64,000 nt of DNA. Origin: Candidatus Latescibacterota bacterium. Its GTDB lineage: Bacteria > Latescibacterota > UBA2968 > UBA8231. A program made the position numbers and the translations under genes. Positions within the stretch are counted from its first letter, which is position 1. Every line of letters starts with the position of its first letter. The stretch spans positions 1,984,001 through 2,048,000 of the forward strand of contig CBDETK010000013.1 in NCBI GenBank assembly GCA_965242865.1, read 5' to 3'. The notes under the pieces were generated by a model that saw nothing but the letters and a program-made list of their open reading frames with translations, searched no databases and was not told where the DNA came from. This document shows positions 4,015-43,952 of the stretch, piece after piece.

Positions 4015-5964
4015 TTAGTACGCAACGGCCACCGCGCCGAGGCGCGTGAAACGCTCGCGCTCGGCGTCGGCCGTCACCTCGGCGAGGTACAGCCCCACGG
4101 GAACCGGGGTGCCGCGGTCGTCGCGGCCGTCCCAGTCCCAAACAAAAGAGCCGCTGCCCCGCGCACCGGCAAACAAGGTGCGCACCCGCTGGCCGCCGAT
4201 CGAGAAAATCCGCACGGTTAGCTGGACGGGCTGCTGGAGCTGGACCAAGGTGCAGGAAATGCGGACGCGCTCGTTGACCCCATCGCCATTGGGCGTCACC
4301 GTGGCCGGCTGCACCGCAAAAAACGGGAGCAGATTGCGCACCGAAGCGGCCGTGGTCAACACGCGTAGGTCGTTGGTCAGGACCGCGGGGTTGGCGTCCC
4401 CGGGCAGGACCTGCTGCGGGGCCTCGTCGCTTTGGGTGTCGAAGACTCGGGCGCGAAAGAACGTAGATTGGACGAAGACTTCGGCACTGAAAACCACGCG
4501 CAAGGCACTCGGGGATTGATGGGTCAGCCGTTGACTGGGGAAGAATAGCTTGAGGCTCCGCTCGCCCTCGACGACGCTGTCGGGCGCGGTCGCAACCGGC
4601 GGGTCGCCCGCGAACAGCTCCTCAAATCGCGGCCTAGCCGGCGTGAAAATCTCCAAGGCATCAAAGCCCACGTCCGTCTCGTTTATGTCGGCGCGGATGT
4701 CGTAGGCAAAGGTCGAGAGCGCGCCGGCCGGCACTCGGGGCTTATTGCCCGAAGGGCGGGGGGTTTCCAGCGCGGAGATTTCTCCGATTAGCTGCTGGGC
4801 CAACGGCGGGATGGAGTGCTCAACCGCCAGCGAGTTGACCCGGATGCCGTCGAGGATGGAGTGGCTGGTGAGGACGATTTCGAGCTGGAAGAAGCGACGC
4901 GGACTCGGCAGCTCAATCCGCTGGCCGGACTCCACGAAGGGGGGCGACCACTCGCTCCAGTTGACGGGGTCGTCTTCAACCGGGCCGCGCACGTTCAGGC
5001 CCAGCCGGCCGTAATCGCCTTCCGAGACTTCCCGCACATCGCCGGTGAAAACATTGACGATTTCGTAGAAGACCTGTGGGGTATCGTCGCGGCCCGTGCG
5101 CATGCGAATGGCGACCCGCGCATCGGCCAAGGGCTCGACGTCGATGCGGCCCTCTTCTTGGCGCAAGGGCTCGGCCTGCCACAACAGGCGGCTCAAGTTG
5201 GCCACTTCGCCCAAGTCAATGATCTTGGACCGATAGCGGCCCTCCGGGGGAAAGCCCGCTCCGTACACCTCAAACTCGGCGATCTCAAAGGGATTGGTCG
5301 AAGTGACGTTGAGCTGGATGTAGCGGACGAATTGCAAGGGGAAGGGGATTTGCGCCACGCTTTCCGTGGTGAAATCCACTTGGGTCAGCAGGTTGTACAC
5401 CGGCAGGTTTTCCGGCGTGAAGCGCACGCCGTCGCTGACCTGAATCTTGTAGCCGCGGATGAAGTCGTCGTCAAAGGGCCGCCCGCGGCTGTCAGCCCCG
5501 GCTGGGCGCGGGAAAAACGAGATGCGGTTGACCGGCAAGCGCGTGCCCAAGTCAAAGAAAAAGGCCCGGCCCGCTTGCAGCACCCCAAATTCCTTGAAGC
5601 GGTTTTCGCTGGAGGTCTGCACGTCGCCATCGACGAGCGGGGCATTGGTCTGCTTGAAGGGCACGTTGTCCCACACCCGCGCCTCGGCCGCCTCTTCGAC
5701 GAAATCCAAGGGAAAGCCCTCGGTCCATCTCAACTGCCGGACGATGTTGTCGTTGGGATTAAAACCCACCAATTGAATGGCCCCGGCCGCGTCGAAGCGG
5801 ATGGCCGTGGAGTTTAGCTCGTCGTCCTGCCAAGAGCGGCCCGCACCGCCCAATTCCCACAGCCGCACCTCGCCCGCCGCGACCATGGCCAACCACGCGA
5901 CTCCCACTAGCGCCTTAGCAGCACAAACCAGCAATTTGCACGCAGACAAAAGCAATTCCCTCAC
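4015..5964 (-). CDS. secreted protein with a C-terminal FlgD-Ig/T9SS-like sorting domain (paralog of 1628-4000 and 11806-13893)
   Basis: Signal peptide; SKIIDLG, RTGRDDTP and WSEWS motifs; VTPNGDGVNE...WDGRDDRG...VPVGLY...VAVAY. Confidence 0.75.
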   Translation of the reverse strand: MRELLLSACKLLVCAAKALVGVAWLAMVAAGEVRLWELGGAGRSWQDDELNSTAIRFDAAGAIQLVGFNPNDNIVRQLRWTEGFPLDFVEEAAEARVWDNVPFKQTNAPLVDGDVQTSSENRFKEFGVLQAGRAFFFDLGTRLPVNRISFFPRPAGADSRGRPFDDDFIRGYKIQVSDGVRFTPENLPVYNLLTQVDFTTESVAQIPFPLQFVRYIQLNVTSTNPFEIAEFEVYGAGFPPEGRYRSKIIDLGEVANLSRLLWQAEPLRQEEGRIDVEPLADARVAIRMRTGRDDTPQVFYEIVNVFTGDVREVSEGDYGRLGLNVRGPVEDDPVNWSEWSPPFVESGQRIELPSPRRFFQLEIVLTSHSILDGIRVNSLAVEHSIPPLAQQLIGEISALETPRPSGNKPRVPAGALSTFAYDIRADINETDVGFDALEIFTPARPRFEELFAGDPPVATAPDSVVEGERSLKLFFPSQRLTHQSPSALRVVFSAEVFVQSTFFRARVFDTQSDEAPQQVLPGDANPAVLTNDLRVLTTAASVRNLLPFFAVQPATVTPNGDGVNERVRISCTLVQLQQPVQLTVRIFSIGGQRVRTLFAGARGSGSFVWDWDGRDDRGTPVPVGLYLAEVTADAERERFTRLGAVAVAY

Positions 5965-34309: not shown

Positions 34310-36198
34310 TGGCCTATATCGACCACTTATACGAGAGCTACTTCCTCAAATACGCCTCGTACTACATTAAGGATCGCGCCATCCCACACCTCGACGACGG
34401 GCTTAAGCCCGTCCAGCGGCGCATCCTCTACGCGCTCCAGCAGATTGACGACGGCAAATTCCACAAGGTCGCCAATGTAGTCGGCCAAACCATGCAGTAC
34501 CACCCGCACGGCGACCAGTCGATTTACGGCGCCTTAGTCGTCCTCGCCAACAAGGACCTTTTCATCGAGAAACAGGGCAATTTCGGCAACATCTACACGG
34601 GCGACGAAGCCGCGGCCGCGCGCTATATCGAGTGCCGCCTCACGCCCTTGGCCAAGGAAGCCCTGTTCAACAAATCGCTTACTCCCTACGTCCCTTCGTA
34701 CGACGGGCGCAACGAAGAACCCGTGGTTTTTCCCGCCAAGCTCCCGGTGCTCCTCGCCCAAGGGGCCGAGGGCATTGCCATCGGCATGGCCACCAAAATT
34801 CTGCCGCACAACCTCGTCGAGCTCCTACAAGCCCAAGTCGCATACCTACAAGACCGGCCCTTTGCCATTCACCCGGATTTTCCCACCGGCGGGTTGGCCG
34901 ACCTTTCGGAGTACAACGACGGCAACGGCAAGGTCTTAGTCCGCGCCCGGCTCGACGCTTCCGACCCCAAGCGCATCCTCATCCGCGAGATTCCCTTCGG
35001 CACCACCACCGAACAACTCATCGCTTCCATAGAAGACGCGGCGCGCAAAAACAAGATCAAGATCGGCACCATCAGCGACTACACGGCCGAAGAGGTTGAG
35101 ATCGAAATCAAACTGCCGCGCGGCACGTACACCGAAGAGATCGTGGATGCGCTCTACGCCTTCACGGACTGCGAGACGTCGATTTCGACCCACCTGATGC
35201 TGATCAACCAGCAGGACAAGCCCCAAGTCATGAGCGCGACCGAAGTCTTGCAGCACAACGTCGATCGCCTCGTCGATATCCTCAAGGCCGAGCTGCACCT
35301 CGAATCCGACCAACTCAACGACCGGCTCCACGCCCGGACCTTGGAGCAGATTTTCATTGCCAACCGCGTGTACGAGGCCATTGAGAGCGAAGCCTCCTCC
35401 GAGCAGATCGCCGAGGCCGTACGGGCGGGGCTTGTGCCGTTTGCCGCCCAAATCAAACGCGCCGTCACGGCCGACGACATCGACGCCTTGCTCGCCATAC
35501 CAATCCGCCGCATCTCGCTCTACGACACCAACCGCGCCCAAAAGGAAATGGCCCAGATCCGCGGCCGGCTGCGCGAGATCAAGGGCCATTTAGACGGCAT
35601 CATCCCCTACGCCATTTCCTTTCTCCAAGACCTGATTAGCCGCTACCGCAGCCAGTTCCCGCGCCGCACCAAAATCGTGGAGCTCAAAAGAGTCGACGCT
35701 CGCTCGGCAGCCAACCGCAACCTCAAGCTCCGCTACGACAAAAAGACTGGCTATCTCGGCCATCAAATCAACGGCCCGGCCCTGTTCGACGTATCGCTCT
35801 ACGACAACGTACTCGCCATCCGCAAGGACGGCTCGTACTCGGTCGTCCAAGCGCCGGACAAGCTCTTCGTCGGCAAGGGCTTGCTCCACTGCGGCTTGGT
35901 CGATAAGGACCTAATTTTTAGCATCGTCTATAAGGACAAGGCCGGTGCCTCCTACATCAAGCGCTGCACAATTGACAAATTCATCTTAGGCCGCAGCTAT
36001 GAGCTAGTCCCGGCCGAGTGCAAGGTCCTCAAGCTGACGACCGACTCCGACAAAAAGATCGCCCTCGACTACAAGCCCAAGCCGCGCCTCCGCAAGCTCA
36101 ACGAGGTATTCCCCATCGGCCAATATCCCGTGCGTGGACACCGCGCCGGCGGCATTCGCCTGACGACCAAGGAACTAGCCGGGTGTAAGCTGGTGTGA
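34309..36198 (+). CDS. parC: DNA topoisomerase IV subunit A
   Basis: [30 protein letters not shown] (catalytic Tyr); short CTD with no GyrA box seen; TAATG coupling. Confidence 0.85.
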
Positions 36199-36298
36199 GC
36201 GGCCCTCAGCCGCTGCACTAATTCATATTCTACGCTGTTAGATATTTGGCTATATTACCGGCAGTAGGCTCATTATCAACCCTATTTTTCCTAAGAAA

Positions 36299-36316
36299 TG
36301 ATTTAGGATTGCTATA
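36299..36316. repeat. isolated MITE-type terminal repeat abutting the R-M start codon
   Basis: TGATTTAGGATTGCTATA matches the ends of the element at 43957-44075. Confidence 0.6.
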
Positions 36317-39300
36317 TGGCGACAAGACAGGTCCTTAGAAGCCATCTCCGGGCGTATTACGACAGCTTGAAAACTACCTTTGCGACCAATCAGGCGACTG
36401 AGCACAGCTACCGCTCGGCCCTTGAGACCCTGGTTCAAGGGTTGGACAGCCAACAAGTTCGTGCTCTCAATGAGCCTAAGCGCATCGCTTGCGGTGCGCC
36501 CGATTTTATCGTTGAGCGGGGAGGGGTACCAATCGGCCATATCGAATGCAAGGATATCGGCGAACCCTTAGATCGCATCGAGAAAGACCCGCAACTGAAA
36601 CGCTACCGCGAGAGTCTGCCGAATCTGATCCTGACCGATCATTTAGAATTTCGCTGGTATGCAGAAGGGGAGTTGCGTCTAACAGCGCGGCTTGCACGCA
36701 TCGCCAGTCCAGATCGGATCGCCGTTGACGAGGCCGGAGCTTCCCAAGTTGCCGAATTGTTCACCGCGTTCTTTGCTGCTGACCTGCCATCCATCGGCAG
36801 ACCGCGTGAACTAGCCGAGCGCATGGCGGGCAAGGCGCGGCTACTCCGCGACAGCATTGAGCGCATCTTGGCGCAAGAAGCTGACAGCCCTCTGCACGAC
36901 TTGTTCGCCGGCTACCGCGAGGTGCTGATCGCCGACTTATCAGAACCCGACTTTGCCGACTTGCAGGCGCAGACAGCCGCTTACGGCCTGTTTGCAGCGC
37001 GGTGCCGACACGAACCTGTCAATGGACCTTTTACCCGACAGTCCGCCGCGTTTGCCGAGACCACGCCCTTTTTGCGAGATGTCTTTGGGCGGATTGCCGG
37101 GCCGGGGATGGACGAGCGGATCGCTTGGATCGTCGATGATCTGGCGTACCTGTTAGACCGAGCGGATATGGCGTCTATTCTGTCCGAGTTCGGCAAGAAG
37201 ACCCGGGGAGAAGACCCGGTAGTGCATTTCTACGAGGATTTCTTGGCGGCTTACGATCCGCACCTGCGTGAGATGCGTGGCGTGTACTATACGCCCGAAC
37301 CCGTGGTGTCTTATATCGTGCGGAGCGTGGACCACTTGTTGCGTACTCGGTTTGGCTTAGCCGATGGGCTGGCCGACACGGCGACGGTCGCGTCCCAAAA
37401 TGGGGGATCACCCCATCCACGAGTACTAATTCTCGACCCGGCGGCGGGCACGGGAACCTTCTTGCGCGAAGTGGTCTCCACCATCCGCAAGACCATTGAA
37501 GCGAAGGGATTAGGCGGTGCTTGGCCGAGCTACGTACATGAGCATCTTTTGCCGCGTCTGTTTGGGTTTGAGTTGCTGATGGCCCCTTATTCGATCTGCC
37601 ATCTGAAACTCGCGCTTGAAATTGGCGGGATAGACCGCGGCTTTGCCATGCCCGCCAGCGAGCGGCTCAATGTCTTCCTCACCAACGCCTTAGAAAAGGC
37701 GCACGAAGGGCCTATTCCCTCGCTATTCGTTCACGAAATAGCCCGCGAAGCGACCGGCGCGGATGAGATCAAGCGCGAGAAGCCAGTGATGGTGATCTTG
37801 GGCAACCCTCCCTATTCTGGACACTCGGCTAATAAAGGCGAGTGGATCAACAAATTGTTGAAAGGACGAGATGGAGAGCAAACAACAGGCAACTATTTTG
37901 AGGTGGACGGACAACCACTTGGCGAAAAAAATTCCAAGTGGCTAAACGACGACTATGTAAAATTCATCCGCTTTGCCCAATGGCGTATTGAGCGCACTGG
38001 CGAAGGCGTGCTGGGCTTCGTGACCAACCACAGCTATTTGGACAACCGGACCTTTCGCGGGATGCGCCGTAGCTTGATGAAAACCTTTGATGAGATCTAT
38101 TTGCTCGACCTGCACGGCAACGTGCGGCAAAGAGAGCATACCCCTGATGGCGGCAAAGATGAAAACGTGTTCGACATTCAGCAGGGCGTTTCTATTAGTC
38201 TATTTGTCAAATACAAAGATGTGGGTAGCGAGCCGTGTCGAATGTTTCATGCCGACTTGTGGGGAGAATGTGAGAACGGACCAGCCGGTAAATATGGCTG
38301 GCTCGTCGCCAACGGTGTCGATACCACCAAATGGAAAGAACTGTCGCCAAAATCGCCAGACTATATATTTGTGCCGCGAGACGAGGATCTGTTAGAAGAA
38401 TACAAAACAGGCTGGAAAGTCACGGACATTTTCCCAGACAATTCGACAGGTATTGTAAGCAAAAGAGATAAAATTGCTTTTCACTTTGAACAAAACGACT
38501 TGTACAAAGTGTTAAATGATTTCCACACTCTCGACGAGCATATTCTTAAAGAAAACTATAACTTCAGAGAAAGCAGAGATGGCAAGATAGGCTTTGTTAA
38601 GGAACATATTCAAAGTTATGGAATTAAGGATGAGTACGTAAAGCTTTGTCTATATAGGCCCTTTGATTATAGATGGACATACTACACGGATAAATCAAAA
38701 GGGTTTTTGGGATGGCCTGTGTATGAAGTCATGCGACATCTACTAGCCGGATCGAATCTTGGATTATGCATTGGCCGGGCCGGTCAAGTTACGGGTTCGG
38801 ACTTCTGGGATGTCGCGTTCGTCTCAAAATTTCCATCGGACTTTAATTTATTTCGGCGTGGTGGAAATTGTCTCTTTCCGCTCTATATATATCCAGCCGA
38901 AAAAGAAAAGAAATTCGGCAGTACCCGAACTCCAAACCTCAATCCCAAGTTTATCGAGGCAGTTGAAAAAGCCACTGACCTCAACTTCATCCCCGACGGC
39001 CCCGGCGACCTCAAAACTACCTTCGGCCCAGAGAATGTCTTCCACTACCTCTACGCCGTGCTCCACAGCCCAGAATACCGCCGCCGCTACGCCGACTTTC
39101 TCAAGTCAGATTTTCCCCGCATTCCCGTGACCAACTGCGCGGCACTGTTTGAGTCGCTCGCCGCGCTTGGGAAGCGGCTGACGGCCCTGCACTTAATGGA
39201 GCTCGATGAGGGCGAGGCCCCCGTCTTTCCGGTCGCTGGCGACAATCGAGTAGAAAAGGTGAGCTACGCGCCGTCACAGAAGCGGGTGTGGATCAACGGC

Positions 39301-39603
39301 AAGCAGTATTTTGACGGCATCGCGCAGCAGACTTGGGAATTCACCATTGGTGGCTACCAGCCGGCCGAGAAGTGGCTCAAGAACCGCAAAAATCGCACCC
39401 TCTCATACGACGACATTGGCCATTACTGCCGCCTCTGCGCGGCCTTGGCCGAGACGCCGCGCATCATGGCCAAAATTGACAAAACAATCGACGCCTATGG
39501 CGGTTGGCCGCTAGTTCAGGACGATTACCTGCGTGGCCTCTATCAGACGTTGAGCGAAGAATGGACCTCTCCAGAAGATGAGGAGGCTTGGTGTGCCCTT
39601 TGA
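36316..39603 (+). CDS. single-chain Type IIG/ISP-like restriction-modification enzyme (nuclease, m6A MTase, TRD) with an extra antitoxin-like C-terminal tail
   Basis: N-terminal APDF...IECK (PD-ExK), GVYYTP, ILDPAAGTGTF, GNPPY, YRPFD, FPRIP, GGWP; no helicase motifs. Confidence 0.9.
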   Translation: MATRQVLRSHLRAYYDSLKTTFATNQATEHSYRSALETLVQGLDSQQVRALNEPKRIACGAPDFIVERGGVPIGHIECKDIGEPLDRIEKDPQLKRYRESLPNLILTDHLEFRWYAEGELRLTARLARIASPDRIAVDEAGASQVAELFTAFFAADLPSIGRPRELAERMAGKARLLRDSIERILAQEADSPLHDLFAGYREVLIADLSEPDFADLQAQTAAYGLFAARCRHEPVNGPFTRQSAAFAETTPFLRDVFGRIAGPGMDERIAWIVDDLAYLLDRADMASILSEFGKKTRGEDPVVHFYEDFLAAYDPHLREMRGVYYTPEPVVSYIVRSVDHLLRTRFGLADGLADTATVASQNGGSPHPRVLILDPAAGTGTFLREVVSTIRKTIEAKGLGGAWPSYVHEHLLPRLFGFELLMAPYSICHLKLALEIGGIDRGFAMPASERLNVFLTNALEKAHEGPIPSLFVHEIAREATGADEIKREKPVMVILGNPPYSGHSANKGEWINKLLKGRDGEQTTGNYFEVDGQPLGEKNSKWLNDDYVKFIRFAQWRIERTGEGVLGFVTNHSYLDNRTFRGMRRSLMKTFDEIYLLDLHGNVRQREHTPDGGKDENVFDIQQGVSISLFVKYKDVGSEPCRMFHADLWGECENGPAGKYGWLVANGVDTTKWKELSPKSPDYIFVPRDEDLLEEYKTGWKVTDIFPDNSTGIVSKRDKIAFHFEQNDLYKVLNDFHTLDEHILKENYNFRESRDGKIGFVKEHIQSYGIKDEYVKLCLYRPFDYRWTYYTDKSKGFLGWPVYEVMRHLLAGSNLGLCIGRAGQVTGSDFWDVAFVSKFPSDFNLFRRGGNCLFPLYIYPAEKEKKFGSTRTPNLNPKFIEAVEKATDLNFIPDGPGDLKTTFGPENVFHYLYAVLHSPEYRRRYADFLKSDFPRIPVTNCAALFESLAALGKRLTALHLMELDEGEAPVFPVAGDNRVEKVSYAPSQKRVWINGKQYFDGIAQQTWEFTIGGYQPAEKWLKNRKNRTLSYDDIGHYCRLCAALAETPRIMAKIDKTIDAYGGWPLVQDDYLRGLYQTLSEEWTSPEDEEAWCAL

Positions 39604-39925
39604 TCCGTTCGATGTCGTCGTCGTTCCCTTCCCCTTCGCAGACCTCAGTAAAAAGAAATGCCGCCCAGCACTAGTCGTCTCTTCAGTGAGCTTCAATCAG
39701 GTCCACGCGCAAACAATCCTCGCCATGATTACGAGCACGAAAAACAGATGGCCAAGCGATATAGTCATTGAGGATTGGCGGGAAGCCGGCCTCAATGTAC
39801 CTTGCAAAATCCGCCTCAAGCTCTTCACGCTCGATAATAAATCGGTGATATGCAAAATCGGCAGGCTGTCGAAACGGGACGAGAAATCCATCGTAGCTAC
39901 TCTCGCCGCTTCACTGACGAAGTAG
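39593..39925 (+). CDS. PemK/MazF-family endoribonuclease toxin
   Basis: FDVVVVPFPFAD...KCRPALVVS...LAMITS...AGL..PCKIR; GAGGAGG RBS 6 nt before GTG 39593. Confidence 0.9.
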   Translation: MPFDPFDVVVVPFPFADLSKKKCRPALVVSSVSFNQVHAQTILAMITSTKNRWPSDIVIEDWREAGLNVPCKIRLKLFTLDNKSVICKIGRLSKRDEKSIVATLAASLTK

Positions 39926-39930
39926 CTCCT

Positions 39931-39949
39931 CAGCAAGGAAAACGCCATG
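39931..39949 (+). repeat. 19-bp direct repeat, copy 1 (duplicate of the pepF RBS and ATG)
   Basis: CAGCAAGGAAAACGCCATG is identical to 42113-42131. Confidence 0.85.
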
Positions 39950-39959
39950 GCTGCACTGA

Positions 39960-40310
39960 TTCAAATCCCTTTTTTCTCGTAAGAAATGGAGTAATTCCAG
40001 TCTAGGGCTTGATGGAGAAGGTCTCCAAAGACGTTTTGACCTTACAGACGCCATTATTGATGTAAGTACCCTGATATTGTTTGGCAGTTTGTCAACTAAT
40101 GACTTCTTGCCAGAAGAAGTCGAAGATAAATGTATTATTGGTTCAATGCTCGGCGACAGGCCAAAATTGGAAAAATACATTAAAGAACGATATATTTGGG
40201 TCAGTCGAATTACTGGAGGAGCAACGTCCAATAGGATGGGGTATCTAGCTCAAAATTATGTCAAGGAGCGCTTGATCCAATATCTCCCAAGTTGGAATTT
40301 TTCACAGACT
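39960..40310 (+). pseudogene. internal fragment of a probable Type II restriction endonuclease, in frame with the downstream MTase
   Basis: Startless frame FKSLFSRKKWSN...KCIIGSMLG...YIKERYIWVSRITGGATSNRMGYLAQNYV; the REase assignment is recalled resemblance and unverified. Confidence 0.4.
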
Positions 40311-42071
40311 ATGAAAATGGCCCATAGAAGTGAAAACTGCAAATCTCTAGACATCTCAACAAGGACATTTGCAGATTTGCAAAAATTGTCGTCAAAGTCA
40401 TTGCGTCCAGATGTATGGCTTTTCCATTTGACGACAGAAATTGGTTTCGACGATGAAATTCCTATAGAAACCCTTAATCAGGGATTCGCCGATTTCCTTA
40501 AAAAATTGCCTGAAGAAAGTACAATTTGTTTTTTAGCAAATCCTCGTATAGCTTGCTATGTGGTAGAAGAATTTCAGAACCGCGTCAACTTCAAACTTTG
40601 GATTGCTGTCAAGCGCAAAAAAAATATACTACGATTGAATGCTTTGCCAGATAGCCATATTGCTCTTTTAGTTTTTACCCGTTGCAAAGGTTCTTTAAGA
40701 CACAATAAGACTCAAATAGAATATACGTACTGTCCTGCTTGTAAGAAAACAACAAAGGACTACGGAGGCAAGAAGCATATTTATAGCCCTTATGGGACGC
40801 TTATGTCTGATATTTGGCGAGACATTTCTTATGATAATGACGCAAAACCAAGAGCTATTCTGAACAGACTGAAGGATCTCTTTGGACATGAACCTTATCG
40901 CGAACTGATTTACTGCGATGTTAGGAACTTTCTTACGTGTTCCAACAAGAGAAAATTCCACTCTGCAAACGGAATAATCAATAACCCCGGCGAGAGTCGT
41001 TTACTCAATGGAGATTGTTTAGATGTCCTCAAGAACATTCCTGAAAATTCCGTAGATTTTATTTTTGCTGATCCTCCATATAATATAAAAAAGAAATACG
41101 ATAACTGGAATGATGCCCAAGACATTAGTAATTACTTCTCATGGTGCGACCAATGGATAGCTGAATCAGCTAGAATTTTGAAACCCGGTCGGACTTTTGC
41201 AATTATAAATATTCCTCTCTGGATCGTCAGACACTTTTCGTTCGCACAAAGCATTTTGGATTACCAAGATTGGATAGTTTGGGAGGGCTTGAGCTTGCCC
41301 GTCAGAAAAATTATGCCGGCCCATTACGGAATAATTTGTTTTAGTAAAGGCCATCCAATCGAAATTGCCAATCATCAAAAGAAAGCCCGTAGAGAAACCC
41401 CCCAAGACTTTATGAGCCTCAAACCATGGTATTGTGTTAGGGCTTCTTGTATTAAAAAAAGAAATGCAGCCAAAATTACCGACCGACAGCCGATTGGAAA
41501 TTTATGGTGGGACATTCACAGACTAAAGCACAATTCAAAAAGAGTTGATCATCCATGTCAACTACCCCCATCACTAATGAAGCGACTTATCTACACCTTT
41601 ACCAAAGAAGGAGATCTTGTTTTAGATCCTTTTAACGGCGCGGGTACAACGACCTTAACATCAAAGATGCTTGGCAGAAAATTCATTGGAATTGAATTGT
41701 CGGCTAAATATCATGCAATTGCCGAACAGAGACATTTAGAGCTGCAAAAAGGGAGAGACCCGTTTGCAAAAAATGGCACTACTCCAAAAGCAAAGAATAG
41801 TCGAGTTGCAAGACTACAAAAACAGAAGTATGAAGTGCCAAAAAAAACACTCCAGATCGAAGTCAAGGAGATTGCTATCAAACTGGGACGCCGGCCCGAT
41901 AGAGAAGATATTATTAGACTCAGCAAATACCCAATTCGTTATTTTGACGAATACTTCATCGACTGGGGAGAAGTGTGTAGTGCCGTTGGCGACAAAGGAA
42001 TGACTGAAAATTTCTCTCAATCCATTAGCACTCGACCCGACGATCAACAAATGGAACTCTCTTTTGGATAG
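40311..42071 (+). CDS. beta-class DNA methyltransferase (N4-C/N6-A) with an N-terminal degenerate MTase-like region and a C-terminal extension
   Basis: GDCLDVL...FADPPYN, HPCQLP, VLDPFNGAGTT, GIELS; tail KLGRRP...YF...WGEVCSAVG resembles a homing-endonuclease-associated repeat; start uncertain (40077 TTG or 40311 ATG). Confidence 0.85.
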   Translation: MKMAHRSENCKSLDISTRTFADLQKLSSKSLRPDVWLFHLTTEIGFDDEIPIETLNQGFADFLKKLPEESTICFLANPRIACYVVEEFQNRVNFKLWIAVKRKKNILRLNALPDSHIALLVFTRCKGSLRHNKTQIEYTYCPACKKTTKDYGGKKHIYSPYGTLMSDIWRDISYDNDAKPRAILNRLKDLFGHEPYRELIYCDVRNFLTCSNKRKFHSANGIINNPGESRLLNGDCLDVLKNIPENSVDFIFADPPYNIKKKYDNWNDAQDISNYFSWCDQWIAESARILKPGRTFAIINIPLWIVRHFSFAQSILDYQDWIVWEGLSLPVRKIMPAHYGIICFSKGHPIEIANHQKKARRETPQDFMSLKPWYCVRASCIKKRNAAKITDRQPIGNLWWDIHRLKHNSKRVDHPCQLPPSLMKRLIYTFTKEGDLVLDPFNGAGTTTLTSKMLGRKFIGIELSAKYHAIAEQRHLELQKGRDPFAKNGTTPKAKNSRVARLQKQKYEVPKKTLQIEVKEIAIKLGRRPDREDIIRLSKYPIRYFDEYFIDWGEVCSAVGDKGMTENFSQSISTRPDDQQMELSFG

Positions 42072-42112
42072 AATTTGCCTTTGTGCCAGAGGGGACTGTT
42101 CTTTTAGCCACA

Positions 42113-42131
42113 CAGCAAGGAAAACGCCATG
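42113..42131 (+). repeat. 19-bp direct repeat, copy 2 (native pepF RBS and ATG)
   Basis: Identical to 39931-39949. Confidence 0.85.
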
Positions 42132-43952
42132 ACCGCTACCTCACCCGCTATGGACTGGGACCTGACGAGCTATTTCGCTGAATTTGACGGCCCGGCCATG
42201 CGGCAATTCAAAGAAGCCCTGCAAAGGGATATGGCGGCGGCACGCCAGCAAGCCGCTGCCCTAGCCCCGCTTGCCGCGGACAATGCCGACGCTTGGGAAG
42301 CCATATTCCTCTTGGCGGAGGGCCTGATCGACCGCCTCTCCCATCTAGGTTCCTACCTCGGCTGTCTCACGGCAGCGGACGCCCGCAATGAGGACTACGC
42401 CCGCGAGGAAGCCGCCTTTGCCCTGCTGGCGGCCGAGAGCGAAAAACTCGATGTCGAACTCTTGCGGGCACTCAAGGACGCGGCGGACGAAACTTTTGCC
42501 GAGTTCGCCCAACGGCCCGCCTTGGCCGACTGCCGCCACTTCCTCGGCCGCCAGCGCGAAGACGCGCAACGCACCATGAGCCCGGAGCAGGAGATGCTCT
42601 CGGCCGACCTCGGGGTTGACGGTCTCCACGCTTGGGGCCGCCTCTACGACTCAATCGCCGGCAAGCTCGAATTCGACATCGCATTTCCCGATGGCCGCAC
42701 CGAACGACGCCCTATGGCGCAACGCCGCGCCCTGATGGAAGACCCAGACCGCCGGGTCCGCCAAGCGGCCTTTGACGGGGGCAATCGGGCTTGGGCAAGC
42801 ATGGAAGACGTAGCCTGCGCCGCGCTCAACGCCATCTCGGGGACGCGGCTGACCCTCAATCAGCACCGCGGCGTCAACCACTTTCTCGATGTCGCCCTCT
42901 TCGCGGCCTCAATTTCGCCCCAGACCCTCGACGCGATGTTCGCGGCTATCGCCGATCAAATCGAGCTGCCCCGGCGCATCCTCGCCCTCAAGGCGCGATT
43001 GATGGGCACCGAGGGCGTGGCCTGGTACGATCTGGGTGCCCCGCTGCCGCTGCCCGATCAAGGGCCGATCTCTTGGGAAGAGGGCACAGCCCTGGTCGCC
43101 CGCTCCTTTGCGACCGCTTACCCGCGCTTGGGGGAATTTCTCGGCCAAGTCTGCGACCGCAAATGGATTGAGTACGCGCCCCGCCCGGGCAAACGGCCCG
43201 GGGCCTTTTGCACCGGCTCGCTGTTGACCCGCGAGTCCCGCATCTATATGACCTACAACGACACCCTCGGCGATGTGCTCACGCTCGCCCACGAGGTCGG
43301 GCACGCCTTCCACAGCTACATCATGCGCGATGTGCGTACTTACGCCCACTCCTACCCGATGACGCTGGCCGAATCGGCCTCGACCTTCGGGGAGATGATC
43401 CTCACCGAGGGCATCCTCGCCGACCCCTCCTTCAGCCCGGCCCAAAAGGCCAGCGCACTCCATCAAGAGATGGGCCACGGCGCGATCTTCCTGCTGGACA
43501 TCCCCGTGCGCTACCAGTTCGAGAAAAAGCTCTACGAAGAGCGCGCCAACGGCGAACTCACCGTCAGCCGCCTCAAGGAACTCATGGTCGAAACCCAGCG
43601 CGGAGTCTTCGGCGACGCGCTCGCACCGGGGGGCGAAGACCCTTACTTCTGGGCCTCAAAGCTCCACTTCTACATCACCGGCGTGACCTTCTACAATTTC
43701 CCGTACACCTTTGGCTTCCTGCTCAGCCGCGGCCTGTATTCAATGTTTAAGCAAGAGGGGAGCGACTTTCTGCCGCGCTACGAGCAATTCCTCCGTCTCA
43801 CCGGCAGCGACACCGCCGAGGGCGTGGCCCGCCGGGCCTTGGGCCGCGACCTCGAAGACCCCCAGTTCTGGACCGAGGCCATCCAGACTTTGGAAGCTCC
43901 ACTGGCCGAGCTGGAGAAACTGTTACCCGAGGTTTTACCTGAGCATTCTTAG
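42129..43952 (+). CDS. pepF: M3B oligoendopeptidase F
   Basis: WDL, GKRPGAFC, TLAHEVGHAFH (HExxH), TLAESAS, FYNFPYTFG. Confidence 0.9.
   Translation: MTATSPAMDWDLTSYFAEFDGPAMRQFKEALQRDMAAARQQAAALAPLAADNADAWEAIFLLAEGLIDRLSHLGSYLGCLTAADARNEDYAREEAAFALLAAESEKLDVELLRALKDAADETFAEFAQRPALADCRHFLGRQREDAQRTMSPEQEMLSADLGVDGLHAWGRLYDSIAGKLEFDIAFPDGRTERRPMAQRRALMEDPDRRVRQAAFDGGNRAWASMEDVACAALNAISGTRLTLNQHRGVNHFLDVALFAASISPQTLDAMFAAIADQIELPRRILALKARLMGTEGVAWYDLGAPLPLPDQGPISWEEGTALVARSFATAYPRLGEFLGQVCDRKWIEYAPRPGKRPGAFCTGSLLTRESRIYMTYNDTLGDVLTLAHEVGHAFHSYIMRDVRTYAHSYPMTLAESASTFGEMILTEGILADPSFSPAQKASALHQEMGHGAIFLLDIPVRYQFEKKLYEERANGELTVSRLKELMVETQRGVFGDALAPGGEDPYFWASKLHFYITGVTFYNFPYTFGFLLSRGLYSMFKQEGSDFLPRYEQFLRLTGSDTAEGVARRALGRDLEDPQFWTEAIQTLEAPLAELEKLLPEVLPEHS

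Follow-up and report, generated by a model that had tools for sequence, protein, structure and literature searches.

Toxin-antitoxin modules of the MazEF/PemIK type with AbrB antitoxins pair a toxin of the PemK/MazF fold with an antitoxin whose acidic C-terminal segment is encoded directly upstream; the antitoxin stop codon overlaps the toxin start, and the ribosome-binding site of the toxin gene lies within the last codons of the antitoxin. Here we describe a locus that shares these features in the genome of a Candidatus Latescibacterota bacterium (assembly GCA_965242865.1), in which the gene directly upstream of mazF encodes a restriction-modification (RM) enzyme. It lies in a 64,000-nucleotide stretch of contig CBDETK010000013.1 (positions 1,984,001 to 2,048,000 of the forward strand), hereafter called the window, whose own numbering is used throughout. 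Free members of the MazEF/PemIK family occur in the same genus; the window locus differs from them in having no AbrB DNA-binding/dimerisation domain and, in its place, a 1066-residue RM enzyme or, in some relatives, its remnant. Because the AbrB domain is absent, autoregulation and the 2:4 heterohexamer are not expected at the fused locus. We think it highly probable that the locus encodes a MazEF-like pair of type II whose antitoxin is chimeric, the RM polypeptide carrying the inhibitory tail.

Short neutralising elements can act on carriers. According to the accessible text of PMC3281143, a 23-residue C-terminal peptide of MazE inhibits MazF, and a 35-residue fragment works when fused; the accessible text of PMC10440598 describes a short Phd-C element that neutralises Doc on a SUMO carrier and not alone. 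As those sources present them, the PanA/Panacea antitoxins, SUMO-Phd-C and the MazF–MazE-peptide 'zymoxin' (PMC10440598; PMC3281143) resemble the window locus in placing a short neutralising element on an unrelated carrier. Their carriers are a dedicated antitoxin domain or laboratory tags, whereas the carrier here is a natural defence enzyme, and the fused clade, unlike those systems, includes a natural deletion series down to 114 amino acids (aa).

A tie between a toxin and an RM enzyme also has a precedent. In the portions available of PMC1484252 and PMC3632139, PrrC-EcoprrI is the textbook case for the idea of immunity-suicide coupling: a toxin that cleaves RNA has a genetic link to an RM enzyme, and this enzyme is proposed to keep it silent. 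The differences from the window locus are considerable. PrrC is an ABC-ATPase/anticodon nuclease at a Type I (Ic) locus, whereas the window encodes a MazF and a single-chain Type IIG enzyme; silencing of PrrC takes the complete multi-subunit Type I complex, and the T4 Stp peptide lifts it, whereas in the window an antitoxin peptide is covalently grafted to the RM protein and the enzymatic part is dispensable. A published view, as far as its accessible text goes, is that immunity loci seemingly have no recognisable antitoxins. The window enzyme itself is like other Type IIG RM enzymes with a Type ISP-like specificity domain in its PD...ExK motif, gamma-type N6 methyltransferase motifs, Type_ISP_C domain and full-length match to PDLC03610, and unlike them in its 29 extra C-terminal residues of antitoxin origin, which are absent in 94 of its 120 best homologues. 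In the literature searched, supplementary files aside, no account was found of an RM enzyme with a fused antitoxin tail.

The tail of the RM protein and the mazF gene

The RM frame (36316-39603, forward strand) is open over 1095 codons and ends with a TGA stop at 39601-39603. Its product reads ...AYGGWPL and then continues in frame into the 29-residue tail VQDDYLRGLYQTLSEEWTSPEDEEAWCAL (39514-39600), identified as antitoxin-derived by a hidden Markov model (HMM) of the antitoxin family, by BLASTP, and by its ratio of non-synonymous to synonymous substitution rates (dN/dS). The Type IIG enzyme body, residues 1-1066 (36316-39513), ends with GGWPL and is delimited by Pfam and PADLOC matches and by the ends of homologues. 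Directly behind the tail is a mazF/pemK toxin gene of 110 aa with a GTG start (39593-39925, forward strand), assigned by the Pfam family PemK_toxin and by family alignment.

The nearest MazF relatives that are not beside this RM enzyme are 57-62% identical and belong to four loci, L006 and L024-L026, the last three from the same genus as the window genome (L-numbers denote loci and G-numbers genomes of the comparison set, G000 being the genome of the window). All four have a free antitoxin of 74-77 aa directly 5' of MazF. The N-terminal half of these free antitoxins is of the AbrB family (TIGR01439, E 1.2e-11), and their C-terminal end is RDDYLQGLSEVMSEWASPEDEEAWRDL. When the last 60 residues of the window RM protein were compared by BLASTP with a free antitoxin of the same genus, 18 of 28 positions were identical (pairwise E 8e-11). 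The antitoxin-family HMM has 75 positions and covers the fused proteins only from position 48 or 49 to 75; no AbrB domain was found in the window RM protein, HMM positions 1-47 being unmatched and Pfam giving none. By alignment, then, the tail is a true homologue of the acidic, toxin-binding C-terminus of the AbrB/MazE-type antitoxins paired with this subfamily of MazF.

The tail is unique in its genome. A tail-only HMM run against all 128,207 open frames of the window genome (93.6% complete) retrieved the RM C-terminus at E 6.5e-8 and nothing else better than E 4.2, so that no second copy was found among these frames; the genome does hold other AbrB-domain proteins. No Pfam family was found with the tail alone or with the last 60 residues even at E 10, and the segment is therefore one that Pfam does not model. 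The free antitoxin gave only weak AbrB/SpoVT matches in a search of the PDB.

The junction with mazF follows the pattern of the free operons. There are two possible starts for mazF, an ATG at 39578 and a GTG at 39593, the latter 6 nt after the sequence GAGGAGG; the GTG is the likely start, since all 22 aligned MazF homologues begin at the equivalent position. The two frames overlap by 11 nt from the GTG (26 nt if the ATG were used). GAGGAGG (39580-39586, forward strand), read as the Shine-Dalgarno sequence of mazF, lies inside the tail codons and is identical in all eight fused loci that have mazF. In the free operons the antitoxin stop overlaps the mazF GTG likewise, as in ...TGGCGTGACCTTTGA (...TGG CGT GAC CTT TGA), and in the free operon L024 the Shine-Dalgarno sequence is again inside the last codons of the antitoxin. 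The homology of the tail and the shared overlap therefore indicate that the fusion kept the C-terminal segment of an antitoxin together with its native mazF junction and lost the DNA-binding domain.

The toxin gene is intact. Its product matches PemK_toxin (PF02452) at E 5.8e-14 over positions 3-108 of the 109 in the profile, and a profile of its family reaches the solved structures of MazF6, EndoA and MazF9 at E values of 3e-4 to 2e-3; a single-sequence phmmer search of the PDB gave no match. Residues R24 (in CRP; RRP in relatives) and T47 (in ITS) are invariant in the family and align with KRRP and VITS of MazF6; this Arg and Thr we take, from the E. coli and B. subtilis MazF literature, to be the catalytic residues. 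Residue 23 (39659-39661) is Cys in the window and Arg in 20 of 22 relatives, including the other seven fused loci. No separate antitoxin was found at the locus: there is nothing between the RM frame and mazF, and DNA homology to relatives ends at 39920.

An earlier note, made by reading the window without database searches, had described most of this arrangement: the 1095-residue protein running past GGWPL, a tail overlapping the toxin start and holding its GAGGAGG, and an intact mazF with no separate antitoxin nearby. Each of these observations held when the features were mapped and the genome searched, and two further points that it made, that the tail is of antitoxin type and that related RM proteins end near GGWP, were borne out by the alignments above and by the homologues described below.

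A scan for promoters and terminators over 36000-40200 gave counts equal to those of shuffled sequence. Metatranscriptome contigs about 90% identical to the window occur in two libraries of one study, and one of these, of 1125 nt, spans 38986-39920, that is the end of the RM gene, the tail and mazF; because RNA libraries can contain DNA, and a contig is not a proven single transcript, it is a hint of transcription only. In public runs labelled sponge metagenome (X5, X7) there are contigs 95-99% alike to 38900-39950, and this segment is at least partly present in 20 rows from 9 studies.

Distribution and origin of the fusion

A search with RM residues 900-1095 gave 1047 candidates, of which 788 proteins had E values of 1e-5 or less; the best 120 of these 788 were compared. 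Ninety-four of the 120 end within about 12 residues after GGWP; the tail is complete in 24 (protein clusters, 83-97% identical in this region) and broken in one, and one more protein stops at GGWPLV. As the other homologues among these 120 lack it, the tail is an addition confined to one close clade.

A mazF gene whose product is at least 85% identical to that of the window is present in eight of 168 genomes of the phylum, that of the window included, and all eight belong to one genus (31 genomes). In all eight, mazF is directly behind a tail-bearing frame. Searching with the RM protein adds two tail-bearing genomes without mazF, giving ten species-level genomes with the fusion.

The wider MazF subfamily was represented by 114 loci (30 from genomes, 80 from metagenomes, and four from viral contigs). 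A complete antitoxin with AbrB domain and tail is upstream in 96 of them by an HMM that had been trained on 87 of these same frames; seven show a match to the tail only, and these are exactly the fused loci of the window's genus; the remaining 11 have no match, owing to another type of antitoxin or to a contig edge. An exhaustive profile search of 1.84 billion cluster representatives returned 14 matches at E values of 1e-3 or less. Three of these belong to the fused clade, ten are proteins of 31-101 aa whose match is to the tail alone, and the last, P0256 (97 aa), has three stretches that match the RM-derived positions 1-16 of the profile and none that matches the tail. No independent fusion was found in the 114 loci or in the profile search, the latter being weak evidence against recurrence since clusters at 50% identity can hide tailed members.

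Four longer matches to the free antitoxin were set aside as not being tail-only fusions to another protein: three keep AbrB-domain sequence and tail behind extra N-terminal residues, and P0129 has AbrB-domain sequence and no tail. In L039 (194-1468) an AbrB-plus-tail antitoxin stands at the end of a 425-codon frame, which may be merely an open upstream frame or an N-terminally extended antitoxin. Two viral contigs (L134 and L135, about 4100-4490) encode a distant MazF (28% identical) behind a 129-codon frame that has no AbrB-like motif by simple pattern match and no antitoxin HMM match; it ends in ...AWDTPEDDAAWADL, which resembles the tail in being acidic and containing Trp and stands behind a different N-terminal part.

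The fused cases, as compared here, are all the product of one fusion event in one Latescibacterota genus. The earlier note had suggested looking for independent loci with RM gene, tail and mazF: the fusion is indeed not a single occurrence, being present in ten genomes, but all of these go back to the same event. A single in-frame deletion is its likely origin. One end of it would lie after GGWPL, just ahead of the RM stop codon, and the other near codon 47 of an adjacent mazE of the AbrB type; this would have removed the RM stop codon and the DNA-binding domain of the antitoxin, and kept the acidic toxin-binding tail of about 28 residues and the native overlap with mazF. The ancestral arrangement, an RM gene beside a free mazE, was not found.

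Natural alleles and genomic sites

Five genomes (G000, G142, G145, G137 and G133) have a full-length RM gene with tail and mazF. In G134 and G140 the RM gene has lost codons ~9-690 through a clean in-frame deletion common to both, with the start codon and its AGGAG retained, and the product of 418 aa consists of the C-domain and the tail; a 418-aa cluster with tail in the protein database has 10 member sequences. In G146 the RM gene is broken at about codon 770 by an insertion sequence (IS) with a DDE transposase, and its halves lie about 175 kb apart; a 365-codon C-terminal frame with intact tail remains, and mazF is intact. Beside each of the two halves lies one and the same 354-aa DDE transposase frame (PF13737, PF01609; L004, 2916-3980, and L050, 4574-5638, both on the reverse strand), an indication that an IS inserted and that a rearrangement of about 175 kb came afterwards. 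Further tail-bearing proteins in the database have 114, 315 and 410 aa, and three others have broken tails; the carriers that end in the tail have lengths of 1095, 418, 410, ~365, 315 and 114 aa.

The two genomes without mazF differ from one another. In G118, mazF is lost after about six codons and the tail is kept with two substitutions; in G141, mazF is lost after about 17 codons, and the first tail codon has changed from CAG to TAG, with four substitutions in addition. The tail frame is open in eight of eight loci with mazF as against one of two without, which is a pattern and not a statistic because the genomes are kin.

The module is located after folD in seven of the mazF genomes (G142, G145, G137, G133, G134, G140 and G146), and the higBA part of this site is present in G118 and G141, which have no mazF. 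At the folD sites L002 and L046 the 3' end of folD is repeated directly on both sides of a block made up of the tailed RM gene, mazF and higA-higB (L002, 1716-1746 and 6181-6211; L046, 1857-2007, 5300-5363 and 6227-6377), and in G141 a third, partial copy of the folD end lies exactly at the mazF deletion point; the folD end has apparently served as a site of serial integration or recombination. In the window the module occupies a different site, with a topoisomerase IV-like gene pair on one side and an M3 peptidase gene on the other, and since the two-gene module of tailed RM gene and mazF is found at two different genomic sites, it has moved as a unit.

Selection on the tail, the RM C-domain and MazF

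Mean dN/dS values were taken over the 28 pairs of the eight genomes with mazF. For all 29 codons of the tail the value is 0.18, and for the 21 codons outside the mazF overlap it is 0.12 (dS 0.26); those for the RM C-domain and MazF are 0.22 and 0.23. The tail is under purifying selection, and because the low ratio extends outside the overlap, it is conserved at the protein level, beyond what a mere ribosome-binding site would explain. Faster evolution of the tail after loss of mazF was considered and rejected, the two genomes without mazF having two and four substitutions, as compared with three relative to the consensus in the window tail.

The RM enzyme and its surroundings

Judged by its frame and motifs, the window RM protein is an intact, single-chain Type IIG enzyme. 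PADLOC model REase_MTase_IIG (PDLC03610) matches it end to end (E 1.7e-283), and Pfam finds an N6_Mtase domain and, at the C-terminal end, the specificity domain Type_ISP_C (residues 704-1051, E 3.7e-82). Three motifs occupy columns that are nearly invariant in a 57-row alignment: PD...ECK (P62-D63, E77-C78-K79; 36499-36552), which by motif type is a putative PD-(D/E)xK nuclease site; the S-adenosylmethionine-binding motif I of the methyltransferase, DPAAGTGTF (37435-37461); and motif IV, NPPY (37804-37815), of the gamma-type N6 methyltransferases. All are on the forward strand. Within the specificity domain a variable stretch of about 320 bp (38411-38727, forward strand; bounded by the blastn gaps between 38410 and 38728) is without DNA homology to other fused loci and has a GC content of 0.39-0.44, against ~0.58 around it, which suggests an exchanged target-recognition segment. 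The window genome contains five more matches to the RM protein, 30-44% identical and in frames of about 1065-1142 codons, none of which has the tail; one lies ~32 kb from the window copy, just past the end of the window (contig C13, 2055362-2057248).

The gap from the topoisomerase IV-like genes to the M3 peptidase gene (36199-42128) is a variable hotspot whose size ranges from 51 to 5929 bp in the genus: 51 bp in G144, ~0.8 kb in several genomes, 3.7-4.0 kb in G139, G130, G141 and G145, and 5.9 kb in the window genome. Behind mazF, a 32-nt direct repeat (84% identical; 39923-39954 and 42105-42136) brackets a low-GC cassette (39955-42104, ~0.38-0.43 GC), the first copy starting at the mazF stop codon and the second lying just before and including the M3 peptidase start. 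In the 664-aa frame of the cassette, part of a BanI-like restriction enzyme (profile positions 152-237 of 338) is joined with an N6/N4 DNA methyltransferase and an HNH-repeat; the cassette seems to have been inserted later and to carry an orphan methyltransferase together with what is left of a dead nuclease.

A proposed chimeric antitoxin and its alternatives

In our proposal, the window MazF has the RM polypeptide as its only cognate antitoxin. This was also the suggestion of the earlier note, and it is the best reading of the sequences, because the tail is homologous to antitoxins, the RM relatives lack it, there is no other cognate antitoxin, and the arrangement recurs in multiple genomes. 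The RM polypeptide, or what remains of it, would serve as a stable carrier for the tail, which would wrap the MazF dimer from its C-terminal position and block the RNase, as the C-terminus of MazE does. With the mazF ribosome-binding site inside the tail codons and its start 8 nt before the RM stop, synthesis of the toxin would be tied to the RM transcript, from which the pair would be expressed, AbrB-mediated autoregulation having been lost. An accidental fusion product would in this way have been kept by selection and locked in by addiction: the cell would depend on an open, translated frame that ends in the tail, leaving the RM body free to decay. Any mutation that ends translation ahead of the tail would be expected to release the toxin, which would account for a frame that remains open as the enzyme erodes; and since alleles without the nuclease and methyltransferase parts keep both tail and mazF, RM activity is not needed to hold the toxin. 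The accidental in-frame deletion that the earlier note had set against this reading is thus retained as the likely origin of the fusion, but not as a mere accident.

A number of points weigh against this proposal. That MazF is an active toxin is judged from conserved residues only, and physical binding and neutralisation by the tail are likewise proposed. The fusion has a single origin, so the retention of the tail in eight of eight loci comes from related, non-independent genomes. In G118 the tail is intact despite the deletion of mazF; the tail changes in the two mazF-less genomes are not clearly more than in the window's own tail, and only the stop codon of G141, not the substitution counts, shows tail loss after mazF loss. 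G146 also has a free copy of mazEF, with possible neutralisation in trans, and it is uncertain at which codon translation of its C-terminal RM fragment starts. Lastly, the RM C-domain is still strongly constrained between the two deletion alleles (dN/dS 0.13, with 45 synonymous and 22 non-synonymous differences), which a role as mere carrier does not obviously explain; the C-domain in these alleles may be needed as a folded, stable carrier.

The alternative that survives best adds a function to the chimeric antitoxin and does not replace its mechanism. In it, as the earlier note had suggested, the fusion was selected as a guard, or coupled immunity, since inhibition of the RM enzyme by phage, its degradation, or a halt in its synthesis would release MazF and so turn a failure of restriction into dormancy or suicide. 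As described in the accessible parts of PMC1484252, the toxin of PrrC-EcoprrI is latent under its RM enzyme and is activated by a phage anti-restriction factor, and the idea of immunity-suicide coupling, in the accessible parts of PMC3632139, predicts that components of immunity act as antitoxins. The location of the module in variable defence hotspots agrees with such a role, as do the intact window RM gene with all its motifs and the exchanged specificity region, which is expected of an enzyme in use. Against it, three of the eight mazF genomes, and several database proteins, have no nuclease and methyltransferase parts and keep the tail, in the three genomes together with mazF; because such alleles exist, the toxin can be held, and the pair can persist, without RM function. 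Nor does anything in the sequence tie the conformation or inhibition of the RM enzyme to exposure of the tail. We consider selection as a guard unlikely, and it is similarly doubtful that the fusion is a working immunity-suicide coupling in which phage attack on the RM enzyme would lose the labile tail and MazF would shut the cell down.

Less probable still is a tail produced on its own, as a small peptide that starts internally, for example at Met1051 (...RIMAKID...), so that the fusion at the protein level would be only apparent. There is an in-frame ATG 16 codons upstream of the tail, and tail-bearing gene calls of down to 114 aa are found in the database. However, RM homologues without the tail conserve Met1051 and the residues around it just as well, so that it is not a new start, and there is no clear ribosome-binding site before it; the deletion in G134 and G140 is in frame and keeps the RM start codon with AGGAG, as would be expected if translation from the RM start mattered, and a short isolated element may be unstable, to judge from the accessible text of PMC10440598.

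A neutral accident, in which the tail would be functionless and MazF inactive or held by another antitoxin in trans, is the least probable, for while the single origin, the Cys that precedes the invariant Arg of the window MazF, the second, free mazEF of G146 and the tail kept without mazF in G118 would suit it, MazF and tail are under purifying selection across eight species-level genomes, the invariant residues of the MazF family are present, the frame has stayed open through two independent RM-destroying events, and the window genome has no other copy of the tail.

Implications

If the RM polypeptide is the antitoxin of MazF, as we propose, then a toxin-binding tail of about 28 residues would be a portable module in nature, able to sit on an unrelated enzyme of 1066 residues and to be kept there by selection, and the fusion would be a natural counterpart of the laboratory carrier fusions. 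The natural deletion series would provide a ready-made map of the minimal antitoxin, and the locus would illustrate how addiction to a toxin can hold the 3' end of a gene fixed while the rest decays. Should the tail also act as a guard, one operon would give restriction first, with abortive infection as a back-up. For toxins that appear to be 'orphans', the antitoxin may hide in the last few dozen codons of a large neighbouring gene.

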